Below, piece by piece: positions 1 to 12,687 of a stretch of 24,002 nucleotides of DNA. The notes under the pieces were generated by a model. It ran no database searches and had not been told where the DNA came from. It saw nothing but the letters and a program-made list of their open reading frames with translations. Every line of letters begins with the position of its first letter. Position 1 is the first letter of the stretch. This DNA comes from a virus (taxonomy: Duplodnaviria > Caudoviricetes). Position numbers and translations under genes: made by a program. Location of the stretch: the IMG/VR virus record IMGVR_UViG_3300025648_000085, positions 1 through 24,002 of that record; one strand, 5' to 3'.

Positions 1-10
1 TTCTCCTCTC

Positions 11-322
11 CTATTGTAGGGTGCGTGGGCTTGTAGGTGTAGATGGACTAGCTGGTGTTGTGTATTGCGGTGTACCTACTACGCCAGTTGTATAACCACT
101 TGGGCTTGTAAATACAATCTGATTAGGGTAAATAGTAGCAGTCTGAGTGGTGTAACCCATAGGGTTTACAAATTGGGCTGTGTTTCCTTGAATCTGTACT
201 GTACCTTGACTGTAACCTTGTGGGTTTGTCATCTGATAAGTTTGTGCTTTAGCTGGTATTCCGTATGCAAACATACCACCTAATATTGCACCTAATAAAC
301 AAGCGCCTAATAAGTCTTTCAT
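11..322 (-). CDS. Hypothetical exported protein (signal peptide plus three 20-aa repeats)
   Basis: Hydrophobic N-terminus ending AKA|Q; (N/S)PxGY(S/T) recurs at exactly 20-aa spacing (Y37, Y57, Y77); Pro/Ser/Thr tail; AAAGGGG RBS upstream. Confidence 0.7.
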   Translation of the reverse strand: MKDLLGACLLGAILGGMFAYGIPAKAQTYQMTNPQGYSQGTVQIQGNTAQFVNPMGYTTQTATIYPNQIVFTSPSGYTTGVVGTPQYTTPASPSTPTSPRTLQ

Positions 323-336
323 TTTTAAACCCCTTT

Positions 337-357
337 AAAAATTGCCCCTGTAGGGGC
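337..357 (-). terminator. Probable intrinsic terminator/attenuator
   Basis: Minus strand GCCCC-TACA-GGGGC hairpin followed by AATTTTT, just after the stop of 364..561. Confidence 0.5.
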
Positions 358-363
358 TGTTAA

Positions 364-561
364 TTAATTTGTGTAACCTTGTGCTTTACGAATTGTTTTT
401 TCGGTTGGAGCTTTTAAAACTGTTGCTTTAAATTCTTCACCATTAGCGTAAGGAAGTGCATTAGCAATTATGTCAGTAGCACGGTCTTGGTCAATATTAA
501 AACCATCCTCTACCCATGTTTCAGCAATTTCAAATTCTACAGTCCACTTATATGTTTTCAT
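364..561 (-). CDS. Hypothetical phage protein
   Basis: 65-aa ORF with strong AAAGGGGAA RBS and an upstream promoter-like region. Confidence 0.75.
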   Translation of the reverse strand: MKTYKWTVEFEIAETWVEDGFNIDQDRATDIIANALPYANGEEFKATVLKAPTEKTIRKAQGYTN

Positions 562-572
562 TTAATTCCCCT

Positions 573-652
573 TTGTTACTCGTTATTGAGTAATAACAGT
601 TTCGTACTGTTTTTTGGTATTGTCACTAAGTATTTTCCCTAATGTTGTATTT
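573..652 (-). promoter_or_regulatory. Putative promoter region with TACAACA and TAGGGAAAATACTTA motifs and a leader hairpin
   Basis: Motif pair also seen at 3314-3339; GTGACA -35-like hexamer follows it; hairpin TTGTTACTC/GAGTAATAA at 573-596 just before the RBS. Confidence 0.45.
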
Positions 653-737
653 ATGGTACTTATAGGTATTAGTTAGGTTATGTTATTAGTACCTATAGGT
701 GTTAGTAAGGTCTTTAATAGTAATTCCAAGAGGTTTA

Positions 738-917
738 AGCACACCTAGCCTACCTAGGTTTGCCTTCAAATGCTTCCATTGAGGAATCGCATCACCCGAC
801 AGTCTTGCATGGTATAGGCACTATCTTCGCCACCTATATTGCGCTGTTTCAACCATTACCCCCAGTAGCGCTGTGATTCCTTTCCCCTGGTATGTCGTTA
901 GAGCCTCAAGAAAGGAA
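738..917 (-). ncRNA. Candidate structured non-coding RNA (five hairpins, possible pseudoknot), family not recognised
   Basis: Stems 917-910/884-877, 871-867/845-841, 838-833/818-813, 793-783/777-769, 764-754/748-738; about 48% GC against about 29% in 561-730; TAGAAT -10 at 927-922; no convincing ORF. Confidence 0.6.
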
Positions 918-929
918 AGTAATTCTACA

Positions 930-1196
930 TTATTCTCTTTCAATAAAACTGTTGTTTTTTGGCACAATTTCAGGCCAGACCCATAACCATGATTTAGGAA
1001 ACATATCTTGGCGAGTTACTAAGCCATGCGATTCTTTTTCGATAAGGGCTGCAAGCATCATTAGCTTATCAACTGGAATAGCGTTTTGTAGCTTCCATTT
1101 ATTAACTGCTTGAACTGACACGCCTGTTCTTTTGCTAACGGCTTTAACACCGCCCAAAAGACTTATCATTTGCTGGTGAGTAAGATTAAGGTTCAT
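930..1196 (-). CDS. Cro/YdaS-like helix-turn-helix transcriptional regulator
   Basis: LGGVKAVSKRTGVSVQAVNKWK HTH followed by IP...LIEKESHGLVTRQDMFP, typical of the Cro/YdaS family. Confidence 0.8.
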   Translation of the reverse strand: MNLNLTHQQMISLLGGVKAVSKRTGVSVQAVNKWKLQNAIPVDKLMMLAALIEKESHGLVTRQDMFPKSWLWVWPEIVPKNNSFIERE

Positions 1197-1202
1197 TACG
1201 CA

Positions 1203-1231
1203 AGTTTAACCCCAAAGTATTATTTTTACAA
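1203..1231 (-). promoter_or_regulatory. Sigma70-type promoter for the cro-like gene (leaderless transcript predicted)
   Basis: TTGTAA (1231-1226)-17 nt-TAAACT (1208-1203); the ATG at 1196 lies 7 nt downstream of the -10; no SD. Confidence 0.6.
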
Positions 1232-1237
1232 CACTTG

Positions 1238-1266
1238 TTGCAATTCTTTAAATTATGGTTTAAAGT
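1238..1266 (+). promoter_or_regulatory. Sigma70-type promoter for the recombination operon with overlapping operator-like palindrome
   Basis: TTGCAA (1238-1243)-17 nt-TAAAGT (1261-1266); CTTTAAA-N6-TTTAAAG at 1246-1265. Confidence 0.6.
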
Positions 1267-1308
1267 ATTACTTATAGCAATTTCGCTATGTATTTAAGGG
1301 GAACTTAA

Positions 1309-1539
1309 ATGTCTGAATTAAACCAAGTAATGCTAGAAATGGAAGAACGCTTAGAAATAGCGCTTCAAAACATGGAATTTGGCACAGAGTTAGCACAAGA
1401 CGATATTGATGTCATTCGTGCAGCTTGTGGCAAACCTAACAACAAACGCAATGTATTGCTTCAGTCTGTATTTGAAGATTTTGGTGGTATTTTTGGAAAT
1501 CCTCTTGAGTCTTTTCCAACAATTAGAGGTGCAAAATGA
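1309..1539 (+). CDS. Hypothetical protein
   Basis: 76-aa ORF, AAGGGGAA RBS, ATGA overlap with the next gene. Confidence 0.75.
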   Translation: MSELNQVMLEMEERLEIALQNMEFGTELAQDDIDVIRAACGKPNNKRNVLLQSVFEDFGGIFGNPLESFPTIRGAK

Positions 1540-1970
1540 GTCAATCTGAAAGCATTGCTAACTTAGCAAAAGCACTATCCATTGTTCAAGGACAACTTAC
1601 TTATGCGACCAAAGATTCTGCAAATCCGTTCTTCAAGTCTAAATACGCTGATTTGGAGAGTGTTTGGGATTCTTGCCGTTCTCTTTTATCTGCCAATGGG
1701 CTATCTGTTATACAAATGCCTGGAAACTATTTCGAGGGCCGTATGTGGCTAGTAACACGCCTTTGCCATGCGTCTGGAGAATGGATTGAGCAAGAAATGT
1801 CTATACCAGTTGCAAAACAAGATGCTCACGGCTGTTTAGCAGCTATTACCTATATGCGTAGAGGCGCTTTGACGGCTTTCTTAGGAATTGTCCAAGCTGA
1901 CGATGACGGCAATACAGCATCAAACAAAACAGAATTTAAACCAGCAGTAGTTAAAGCAAAGGAAATCTAA
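1536..1970 (+). CDS. erf: ERF-family single-strand annealing protein
   Basis: KDSANPFFKSKYADL, HASGEWI and AITYMRR...GIVQADDDGN motifs of the ERF superfamily. Confidence 0.9.
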   Translation: MSQSESIANLAKALSIVQGQLTYATKDSANPFFKSKYADLESVWDSCRSLLSANGLSVIQMPGNYFEGRMWLVTRLCHASGEWIEQEMSIPVAKQDAHGCLAAITYMRRGALTAFLGIVQADDDGNTASNKTEFKPAVVKAKEI

Positions 1971-2224
1971 TGTCTTATATTCCAAAAGAAGGCTCGGGGA
2001 GTTTATTCAAAAATGACCGCAAAACAACGGAAAATCACCCTGATTACACGGGTTCGATTATGGTTAATGGTAAAGAACATTACCTTTCGAGTTGGATTAA
2101 AGAAGGTAAAAAAGGCAAGTTTTTTAGCATTGCGATTGGCAAAGAAAAAGCACCAGTAGGATTTAAGTCTGCTGGTAGCGATGAAATTCAGCGCCATACC
2201 ATTGAAGATGATGTTCCTTTCTAG
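1970..2224 (+). CDS. Putative small ssDNA-binding protein
   Basis: GSLFKNDRK...HPDYTG...W core, acidic C-terminal DDVPF tail like SSB, adjacent to erf. Confidence 0.6.
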   Translation: MSYIPKEGSGSLFKNDRKTTENHPDYTGSIMVNGKEHYLSSWIKEGKKGKFFSIAIGKEKAPVGFKSAGSDEIQRHTIEDDVPF

Positions 2225-2233
2225 GAGATAGCC

Positions 2234-2431
2234 ATGCTGAGTCACATCAAAGATGTTATTGGCGAAAAGGCCATTATTACAATGGAAGCCTATGGGGTAG
2301 ATGAAGAAAGAAGGTTAATTTCTTTTGAACCCATAGATTTAGAGTTAATACTCAAAGATGTGATTCAGGTATGCGCTGATATGTGCATTACTGAAATAGA
2401 TAGAGAAGCAATTTTAGAATTACTTAAATAA
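2234..2431 (+). CDS. Hypothetical protein
   Basis: 65-aa ORF with AGGAG RBS inside the operon. Confidence 0.7.
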   Translation: MLSHIKDVIGEKAIITMEAYGVDEERRLISFEPIDLELILKDVIQVCADMCITEIDREAILELLK

Positions 2432-2450
2432 GCATTTAAAGGGGAAATAA

Positions 2451-3200
2451 ATGTCAGAACATTGGTACTGTGCCGTTACAGGCTCACCACGCTATACAAC
2501 TACAGGTAAAAATGGAAAAGAACGCAATACAACTTTGCGAGATGCAAAAGCAGCACCAGGCACTCTCGTACCTTCCGTTTCTACAATTAACAGCCAATTA
2601 TCTAAAGCTGGACTTGACACTTGGAAACAAACCCAAGTCTTGTATGCTGCTACAGAAAACCCACGATTAGATGGGGAAGATGAAAAATCTTGGATTTCTA
2701 GAATATTAGAGTTAGCCAAGCGCAAAAGTCGTGAAGCTGCTGATAGAGGCACAATTATCCACGATTGGATAGAAGCCCACTATTCGCAAGAATATGTGCC
2801 AGATATGCCAGCGTATGTCAAAACTGTAGATGAGGCTATAACGGCCCATTTTGGGGCGCAGTTATGGATTCCTGAACAGAGTTTAGTTAACGCAGCAGAA
2901 GGATATGGTGGTAAATGCGATTTGTATTGCAAGCCACACCATGACTTCTCTGGGGTCGTTATTGACTTCAAAACCACGGAGAAATTCCCTGGTGATTTAA
3001 CACCCTACCTAGAGCATACACTACAGCTTGCAGCGTATAGAGAGGTTTTAGCCCCATCTGCACGATGCGCTAATGTCTATATCAATGGTGAAACAAATGT
3101 AGTCGCTATTTATGAACATAGCGAGCAAGACCTTAGAGATGGCTACCAGATGTTTCTAAATTTGGTAAATATTTATAAATTGAAAAATAAGTTAAACTAA
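2451..3200 (+). CDS. PD-(D/E)XK exonuclease (RecB-like phage exonuclease)
   Basis: PSVSTI, RGTIIH, E..., GKCDL, IDFKT and QLAAY motifs; partner of ERF. Confidence 0.85.
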   Translation: MSEHWYCAVTGSPRYTTTGKNGKERNTTLRDAKAAPGTLVPSVSTINSQLSKAGLDTWKQTQVLYAATENPRLDGEDEKSWISRILELAKRKSREAADRGTIIHDWIEAHYSQEYVPDMPAYVKTVDEAITAHFGAQLWIPEQSLVNAAEGYGGKCDLYCKPHHDFSGVVIDFKTTEKFPGDLTPYLEHTLQLAAYREVLAPSARCANVYINGETNVVAIYEHSEQDLRDGYQMFLNLVNIYKLKNKLN

Positions 3201-11807: not shown

Positions 11808-12687
11808 TTTGACCTCTTAACAAATTAATTAATGATGCTGTTGTTGTGTCAGGTACAGTATTTTGTTGTGATGTGCTTAAATATGGATTTTGACGCTGAT
11901 AAGCAGTCATGCCACCAGTTCCACCCGCCATTGTGCTATAACCGCCACCACCTGTGCCACCTGTCATTTTGCCTAATGAATTTACACCCATACGCAATAA
12001 TTGGGCTTTTTGCAATGCGCTTAAACCAGCAGTTGTACCAGACCCTAATCCAAGACCCGCAGCCGCTTCAGTTGCAGCAATGCCAGCAGGAGAAGCCGCA
12101 CCACCTAAAGCACCAAATGTGCTACCAGCAGCAGGATAAGTTAATGACCCAAAAGTTCCAGTAGAAGCAGCAGGGTTTATACCAAAGCCACTTGAAGCAC
12201 CACCAGCAGCACCTTCACCAGCCAATGCACTAGCACCATAAGCACCGCCTAAAACAGTACCAGCAAGAGTTAATGCACCAGCAGGCGTTGTAGCCCAGTC
12301 TGTAAAGTTACTACTTTGTTTTCTATCAACTGGAGTGTTAGAAAGCGCCCCAGTTTTAGGGTCTATTTGATACTCATAAGCACCAGTAATAGGTACATTT
12401 TGACCATTAAGATTATAAGTTTGGTCTAATGGGCCAAGAGCTAAATATTGTTCATTATTCATTCCTGAGCGAATTGCATCAGGATGTGCAGCATATTGTT
12501 GTTGATACCAAGATTGTGTTGGGGTATATCCTACAGATTTACCTGTAGAATCTACAGTAACAGTACCACCACTAGCATCTTTGTATTGGTATGTTGTATC
12601 GCCATTGACATCAGTCATGCCACCAGCAGCGCTTAATTCATCAAGCGATGGTGCAGAACTTCTGAGTGAGGATGCTAAATCAGCCAT
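11800..12687 (-). CDS. Probable internal virion protein, Gly/Ala-rich
   Basis: 295 aa with potential membrane-inserting GALTLAGTVLGGAYGASALAG. Confidence 0.5.
   Translation of the reverse strand: MADLASSLRSSAPSLDELSAAGGMTDVNGDTTYQYKDASGGTVTVDSTGKSVGYTPTQSWYQQQYAAHPDAIRSGMNNEQYLALGPLDQTYNLNGQNVPITGAYEYQIDPKTGALSNTPVDRKQSSNFTDWATTPAGALTLAGTVLGGAYGASALAGEGAAGGASSGFGINPAASTGTFGSLTYPAAGSTFGALGGAASPAGIAATEAAAGLGLGSGTTAGLSALQKAQLLRMGVNSLGKMTGGTGGGGYSTMAGGTGGMTAYQRQNPYLSTSQQNTVPDTTTASLINLLRGQNG

Follow-up and report, generated by a model that had tools for sequence, protein, structure and literature searches.

IMGVR_UViG_3300025648_000085 is a linear virus record of 24,002 bases from a freshwater-type phage; it is about 70% complete, and we used it whole and call it the window. 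The major head protein, tail and lysis genes lie on its minus strand, and its plus strand carries a short operon for an Erf-like annealing protein, SSB, an exonuclease, a methyltransferase and HNH. At one end of the window, an 88-aa reading frame points towards a structured non-coding element and stops 12 nt before it. This frame matches phrog_35 (E 1e-11) and, below that profile's cut-off, P22_Cro (E 1e-5), so the position downstream of a Cro-like gene given in the earlier note stands. The second reading frame after the element, of 103 aa, ends 10 nt before the contig does. Its homologue lies downstream of the RNA in 12 loci, 11 of which also hold the truncated initiator gene described below, while the twelfth ends early; the window's own copy of that gene would sit past the contig end, after the 103-aa frame. 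Between the 65-aa and 103-aa frames, a GC-rich hairpin with A/T tails on both sides (344-357) is a possible two-way terminator. The features of the locus are:

930 to 1196, minus strand: Cro-like regulator, 88 aa
922 to 927, minus strand: -10-like box TAGAAT, probable promoter of the element, from positional conservation
724 to 917, minus strand: full conserved element of about 194 nt (extended Betaproteobacteria-1 RNA), from the alignment of 82 homologues
794 to 917, minus strand: part covered by Rfam family RF02932
774 to 797, minus strand: repeat copy 1, with variable core TGGAA at 778-774 in the P4 loop
724 to 746, minus strand: repeat copy 2, with core TGGAA at 728-724, 50 nt after copy 1 and ending the conserved element
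560 to 723, no strand assigned: AT-rich tract, candidate DNA-unwinding element (GC 28% at 624-723, the 1.6th percentile of the record)
11 to 322, minus strand: 103-aa reading frame

An extended member of RF02932

The earlier note held this RNA to be unassigned to any named family, a claim of novelty that fails as stated because positions 917-794 of the minus strand give a clear and full-length match to RF02932, Betaproteobacteria-1 (93.1 bits against a gathering threshold of 49.4, E 2e-17, model positions 1-120 of 120). All three consensus stems are kept, with no broken pair in the cmscan alignment, and this is the sole match at gathering level in the whole record. When positions 1-3000 were compared with Rfam at E up to 5, the only other match was a chance one to C0299 (E 3.4), with none to ribozyme or riboswitch families and none to the ColE1 RNA I or RNA II families. 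We take RF02932 to be one of the 224 motifs of Weinberg et al. 2017. Rfam lists it as sRNA, with no function in its output. A literature search on the family name and accession returned nothing relevant, and no paper giving RF02932 a function was found in a literature that mostly lacks subscription papers. The name Betaproteobacteria-1 is absent from the main text of that paper (PMC5737381), whose supplement may already note context or pseudoknots.

An 18-letter core pattern retrieved 119 viral loci, and 18 of the 20 of these that were scanned exceed the Rfam cut-off. From 120 loci, 82 homologues were aligned with MAFFT without structure (median identity 56%, about 55 effective sequences); the others were dropped, 27 by the member filter, 1 for its short length and 10 for an identity of 95% or more to a retained sequence. 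The 27 include three real-looking loci (L062, L067, L070) and three truncated ones. A stricter pattern gave 87 matches in GTDB genomes, and 67 of the 80 matches listed carry betaproteobacterial names. The family thus occurs in Betaproteobacteria and their phages, including Acidovorax phage AP1 (OM049504), where an unannotated copy lies at 11878-12055 of the phage record (L415:8972-9149), 57 nt after the primase gene. AP1 was retrieved with a homologue as query, while blastn of the window's own element against named phages gave no match. Since AP1 is an isolated phage that carries the element, direct tests are possible. A plasmid search found one full copy, on a 1.5-Mb replicon.

Conservation among the 82 homologues runs about 70 nt 3' of the end of the Rfam model, down to 724, and relatives' contigs from four public runs match down to the same position and then diverge; the end at 738 proposed earlier has to be moved accordingly. 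The sequencing-run search gave small shares (0.09 at most), and its contigs are relatives that run past both ends, with no transcript ends visible. The element and RF02932 have the same three nested stems, to which the element adds P4, P5 and a matched repeat in the further 70 nt or so; it also has three pseudoknots and a crossing stem, none of which appears in the Rfam consensus line.

Pairs were chosen by mutual information on the alignment of 82 homologues, which supports a fold of six stems (P1, P2, P3a, P3b, P4 and P5) and three pseudoknots. The stems are given here with the hairpins H1 to H5 of the earlier note to which they correspond:

877 to 917, minus strand: P1 (H1; MFE), two-sided changes in 8 of 8 pairs, 81% of cells paired
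862 to 890, minus strand: PK1, 890-887 (CCAG, at the base of the P1 loop) with 865-862 in the P2 loop
841 to 871, minus strand: P2 (H2), 871-867 with 845-841, 94.3% paired
810 to 855, minus strand: PK2, 855-852 in the P2 loop with 813-810, 91.8% paired
798 to 837, minus strand: H-type pseudoknot core, P3a (837-832/819-814) crossed by P3b (825-820/803-798)
769 to 793, minus strand: P4 (outer stem of H4), 793-790/772-769, beyond the Rfam model
738 to 764, minus strand: P5 (H5, extended), 764-756/746-738, 84.8% paired

Across 46 pairs, 90.4% of alignment cells are paired, compared with 73.0% after shuffling and 35-47% when the partner is slid; two-sided changes occur in 35 of the 46, and the covariation score is 0.471 versus 0.180. 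These figures lean upward because the pairs were chosen on the same alignment. Two pairs covary almost perfectly, 835-816 (AU 38, GC 27, CG 17) and 824-799 (AU 30, CG 30, UA 20). PK1 is 95.7% paired, with two-sided changes in three of its four pairs; a fifth pair was rejected at 9% paired. All four PK2 pairs change on both sides and are among the top mutual-information pairs. The H-type core encloses the stretch GGUGGCGAAG at 834-825, and its stems P3a (H3) and P3b (Rfam's third stem) are 94.3% and 99.8% paired, an invariance partly imposed by the search pattern. P4 is 89.6% paired, with two-sided changes in 4 of 4 pairs, and two pairs of P5 interchange G-U and G-C. In the homologues G-U cells far outnumber A-C cells (517 versus 78), which bears out the minus strand, already favoured in the earlier note from G-U pairs, and favours RNA over DNA.

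The evidence for this structure is comparative only. Folded singly, the sequence reaches -51.3 kcal/mol (z -0.16), a stability equalled or bettered by 75 of 200 shuffles, and neither strand shows excess stability (z -0.16 and -0.86). The five hairpins proposed from the sequence have all their arms present on the minus strand; H1, H2, H3, the outer part of H4 and H5 covary, while the inner part of H4 (TTCC/GGAA) was rejected, being paired in 27-76% of homologues per column. Two long-range pairings had been proposed to make a pseudoknot or switchable fold, CGACA with TGTCG (39-84% of homologues per column) and TTGAGG with CCTCAA (32-79%). Neither is conserved, both look like chance complements, as does inner H4, and the three pseudoknots found instead are different ones. 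Translational bypassing over the repeat was considered because of a conserved TGA/TAA and rejected, as no constant reading frame crosses or follows the element.

A matched repeat between a probable promoter and an AT-rich flank

Several of the top covarying column pairs are identical rather than complementary, which revealed two imperfect copies of about 23 nt, spaced 47-52 nt apart in 64 of the 82 homologues. Their variable cores have at least 5 nt in common in 79 of 82 homologues, compared with 16.9 (28 at most) in 2,000 partner shuffles. There are 39 distinct cores, and with one row per core the mean common length is 6.6 versus 3.6. Identity between the copies at four column positions is 0.85-0.91 versus 0.35-0.49, in an alignment whose record numbering for copy 2 is off by one. 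The common core is short (mean 6.8 nt) and broken by conserved mismatches, which makes it weak for an RNA-DNA hybrid, and part of the identity, on the 5' side of the copies, could be due to an alternative fold in which they pair with the 5' strand of P5. The variable core needs a reader outside itself. Its complement is not enriched inside the element (7 of 79 versus 9.9) and is found in the 600-nt flanks in 1 of 38 loci on each side, which leaves the template DNA strand as what we infer to be its simplest partner. An iteron array was rejected, since third copies show no excess (3 and 8 of 38, versus 6.4 and 7.0).

The TAGAAT box at 927-922 that the earlier note had read as a -10 is present in the sequence, although the promoter scan does not call it because no -35 lies at 16-18 nt. 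A TAnnnT box stands just before P1 in 28 of 51 leader-less viral homologues, against a background of 20%. A T-tract leader immediately precedes the RNA in 28 of 79 viral loci, and 25 of these 28 have a -10-like box 200-260 nt upstream of the core, a wider window that has no matched background. In about a third of viral loci the promoter and the RNA are separated by a long hairpin leader that contains internal complements and a T-tract, about 130 nt upstream of the RNA (L004, L007, L009, L016, L023, L027 and others); this leader could be an attenuator or an antisense target that controls the RNA. The terminator scan found none closing the RNA. Downstream of the element, an antisense promoter consensus occurs in 4 of 53 loci versus 15.1 shuffled, and promoter-like sites of the downstream genes are likewise not enriched (13 of 53 versus 15.1).

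The contrast in GC content noted earlier was confirmed, at 47.4% for 738-927 versus 29.2% for 560-737. In 49 of 50 loci the 100 nt that follow the element have a GC content below that of their locus; ranked against the whole genome rather than intergenic DNA alone, these 100 nt fall in the lowest 2% in 11 of 17 complete genomes carrying the three element types described below and in the lowest 10% in 15 of 17. Inside the AT-rich tract of the window, 644-709 holds a tandem pair of imperfect 33-nt repeats, 76% alike, together with inverted repeats, and these flanks vary among relatives.

A swappable slot and a truncated initiator

Clustering of neighbouring genes gave two replication modules that are never found together. 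One consists of cro, the RNA and a 123-aa protein; the other of a ParB-like protein, an SF2 helicase and a Toprim primase, and in this second module the RNA may stand at either end. We counted both modules in the 105 loci that have 1.5 kb to each side: 29 hold the SF2 helicase and Toprim primase, 25 the truncated initiator, none both and 51 neither. In L194 the RNA is followed by a DnaC-like loader, and some carriers have other neighbours, such as the terminase in L010. Extra genes (PAPS-reductase-like, HNH, methyltransferase) may be inserted between cro and the RNA without displacing the RNA (L003, L026, L032, L044, L052, L058; L007, L072; L027).

The 123-aa protein matches only about positions 179-260 of the initiator profiles phrog_270, 9474 and 9327 and starts at its own Met. 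It is the C-terminal part of an O-like initiator, without the origin-binding half. Its longer relatives have N-terminal DNA-binding domains, PF13730, PF04492, PF09681 and PF07120. The initiator domain stands alone in 63 of 63 loci picked by Cro (at most 29 open codons before it) and in 80 of 80 picked by the 123-aa protein, and in these loci no lambda-type full-length initiator with an N-terminal origin-binding domain follows cro. Pseudomonas phage PfAn1, by contrast, has a 317-aa reading frame after cro; this initiator-like frame (L437:2497-3450) lies between cro and a P-like gene and was left out of the GenBank annotation. Of the reading frames scanned in two complete genomes, G013 (56 of 62) and G016 (53 of 55), the 123-aa protein is the sole initiator, helicase, primase or polymerase match, a 'primase' profile match in G016 covering only a methyltransferase part, and the scanned frames include no integrase or cI. 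The frames scanned in G010 (31) and G011 (29) gave no initiator, helicase, primase or polymerase match. The predicted structure of the truncated initiator (pLDDT 78) is uninformative, with no Foldseek match at E up to 0.001 and a best VIA Z of 5.5, and a sequence search of solved structures gave nothing. Model residues ~76-121, the last third of the protein, in one copy (L003:3262-3630) show a weak likeness to SAP/LEM/Rho-N helical modules, at a Z under 4 that is not significant.

The place after cro appears to be a slot. We chose 80 loci by their Cro protein alone; 58 of them, close relatives and not independent events, extend 1.5 kb or more downstream, and every one of these carries exactly one structured element: this RNA (type 1) in 44 and an unrelated type 2 in 14. 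Type 2 is about 250 nt long, occupies the same slot, has two-sided changes in 23 of 40 predicted pairs and has no Rfam match. It occurs in L219, L224, L226, L227, L244, L245, L269, L270, L281, L285, part of L440-L481 and L436:1891-2144, and GenBank MW202674 has the same layout with type 2. Type 3, of about 180 nt, was found in 83 loci (L292-L374, for example L298:2433-2612), none of which holds type 1 or 2. It has two-sided changes in 15 of 36 pairs and no Rfam match in the three loci scanned, follows cro in 62 of 64 loci and lies upstream of the truncated initiator in 56 of the 57 with room for it. Among 20 near-complete records, 10 have type 1, four type 2 (a fifth weakly), three type 3 and two none, and none has two types.

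Selection by the 123-aa protein gave 80 loci, of which 32, partly overlapping the core-pattern set, have this RNA; those with cro and without it mostly have an ORF-free gap of 330-510 nt that holds other conserved elements, for which Rfam gave no match. Selection by primase gave 20 loci: five have type 1 and 14 have, by eye, another common conserved stretch after the primase, so a fourth element type is possible. Other conserved non-coding stretches occupy these slots after the primase stop codon in L422-L435 and also in L420, G020 and G024; they match none of the three profiles and, in those scanned, nothing in Rfam. L422 and L423 look like type 2 by eye, but the type-2 profile does not bear this out. 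Types 1-3 are absent from 23 control loci, the majority with a long reading frame for the initiator; this control is weak in that 15 of 22 loci look like one near-identical group and the hosts probably differ. One control, L539, combines a short initiator frame with the lack of any recognised element.

Outside phages, 43 genome loci without phage modules carry copies among island genes, where homology ends at the promoter and RNA; the large gene that comes next has the same orientation in 18 of them and the opposite one in 25. In Burkholderia, Paraburkholderia and Caballeronia contigs (L122-L199), stand-alone promoter and RNA units occur up to three per genome, some truncated, near Tn7-like transposition genes, restriction-modification genes and other defence-type genes, and could be remnants, satellite origins or decoys. 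In a single case (L186) the copy has a reverse-transcriptase gene on one side and a type I-G-like CRISPR-associated gene on the other.

A proposed RNA-based origin and its rivals

An element that is always present, single-copy and swappable, that serves two replication modules, borders an AT-rich flank and accompanies a halved initiator is most simply read as an origin, and the matched repeat suggests that the P4 loop seeds an R-loop at copy 2. We regard the proposal that the element is the phage's RNA-based replication origin, with an R-loop formed where a loop of the RNA base-pairs to the template DNA of the second repeat, as evenly balanced between true and false, and as the leading explanation, one that is directly testable. 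The earlier note had guessed at an RNA-primed origin replacing a protein initiator. The comparative data, with every one of the 58 slots filled and the initiator halved, support the guess, though with an initiator that is cut in half rather than absent.

In the scheme that we infer, the RNA would be transcribed from its own predicted promoter, and the P4 loop of the nascent transcript would pair with the template strand at copy 2, 50 bases downstream. The resulting R-loop would be held open at the edge of the AT-rich tract, where the hybrid could prime synthesis or the displaced strand could be exposed for helicase loading, and the stand-alone C-terminal initiator domain, or the helicase-primase pair in other carriers, would recruit the fork machinery. 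A broader and more tentative proposal, to which we give rather less than even credence, is that a widespread group of betaproteobacterial phages dropped the origin-binding half of a lambda-O-like initiator and instead uses an interchangeable RNA, in at least three unrelated knotted folds. In the fold described here, a reprogrammable loop would locate the phage's own genome through base pairing and so open the origin to whichever partner is present, the protein half that was kept or a helicase-primase. The island copies count against an origin, since a free-standing live origin would not be expected where there are no phage modules.

The nearest parallels are other RNA-based origins. According to the accessible parts of PMC4412123 and PMC3035462, ColE1 RNA II is a folded transcript whose upstream stretch can pair with the template downstream, without an origin-binding protein, and the hybrid joins an rG stretch in RNA II to a dC stretch in the template (PMC4412123, in the same part). 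In our element an upstream stretch of RNA equals a downstream stretch of the non-template strand in the same 79 of 82 homologues, from which pairing with DNA is presumed. Unlike ColE1, it is found in a phage, is about 194 nt long, has a variable matched core rather than a G/C stretch, shows no excess of consensus antisense promoters in our scan, is partnered by a truncated initiator or a helicase-primase, and has no Rfam match to the ColE1 RNAs. In the available portions of PMC7157519 and PMC3035462, cluster A mycobacteriophage prophages and MRB plasmids likewise have RNA-based origins in which a non-coding RNA region replaces a Rep protein, there serving maintenance of an extrachromosomal prophage or plasmid; our comparison with these is by description rather than by sequence. 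Unlike them, the complete relatives here have no integrase or cI match and keep half an initiator. ARRPOF, GEBRO and PAGEV are also pseudoknotted, span 200-350 nt and come from regions needed for or tied to replication, as the parts available of PMC5737381 and PMC12990946 describe them, but they are plasmid-borne, belong to other Rfam families and do not match the element. The T4 origins oriF and oriG also have a promoter followed by an AT-rich unwinding element; their description in the accessible text of PMC4412123 includes no conserved knotted RNA and no matched repeat.

A different kind of parallel is HK022 putR, a structured RNA about 270 nt after the rightward early promoter PR that acts over 10 kb without a protein factor (PMC9378689, in the part available). 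Like putR, the element follows cro, and it might act as a nascent RNA that binds host RNA polymerase and allows read-through of terminators in a long rightward operon. The genes downstream of it are co-oriented in phage loci, against the 18 co-oriented and 25 opposed in islands. A host target that is itself conserved would fit a conserved core. Among the frames scanned in G013 and G016, where most of the genome is co-oriented downstream, none was named as an N- or Q-like antiterminator, and the lack of excess promoter-like sites for the downstream genes fits as well. However, put is about 70 nt with two stem-loops in the same part of PMC9378689, which describes no repeat and no link to initiator truncation, whereas the element has about 194 nt, six stems and three pseudoknots; its island copies show no preference for co-orientation, T-tract leaders lie directly upstream of the RNA in over a third of viral loci, and the matched repeat, truncated initiator and helicase/primase neighbourhood would be left unexplained. 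We therefore consider a put-like function, the main rival, unlikely. The sharp ends of the promoter and RNA unit, which stands alone in islands too, would also suit a free RNA that acts in trans or as a scaffold and that, without any DNA pairing, binds either the truncated initiator or a protein of the host, for example to divert the host helicase, and the two repeats could be two protein sites. Yet 39 cores are matched within copy pairs, over two unrelated modules and protein-free copies, a diversity that base pairing fits better than protein readout, and no terminator closes the RNA, which together make this decidedly unlikely.

Covariation by itself cannot separate RNA from single-stranded DNA, a point made in the available text of PMC5737381, and a Toprim primase adjoins the element in many carriers; the element might instead work as a folded single strand of DNA recognised by a primase or restart primosome. 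Conserved G-U pairs, the interchange of G-U with G-C and the conserved upstream -10-like box all oppose this reading, which we find quite improbable. The ribozyme and switch guesses of the earlier note found no support. A catalytic or ligand-binding RNA would fit the dense pseudoknotted core with its many invariant bases, and copies 1 and 2 could, judged by eye, alternate in pairing the 5' strand of P5; that invariance is partly imposed by the search pattern, however, downstream of the element no gene, start codon or terminator is constant, and no known ribozyme or riboswitch family was matched at the permissive threshold used, which leaves such a function with very little credence.

A literature search made mostly without subscription papers turned up no printed account of the longer fold, the matched repeat, the swappable slot or the truncated initiator. 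These findings give the orphan family RF02932 corrected boundaries and a specific, testable job, and point to at least two uncatalogued structured elements (types 2 and 3, with a possible fourth after primases) that swap with its RNA. If the origin reading is true, it would explain how replication starts in common phages of 34-37 kb in which no gene for an initiator, a helicase, a primase or a polymerase can be recognised; it would also add to the RNA-based origins a design of an RNA plus half an initiator, and may offer compact replicons with tunable specificity.
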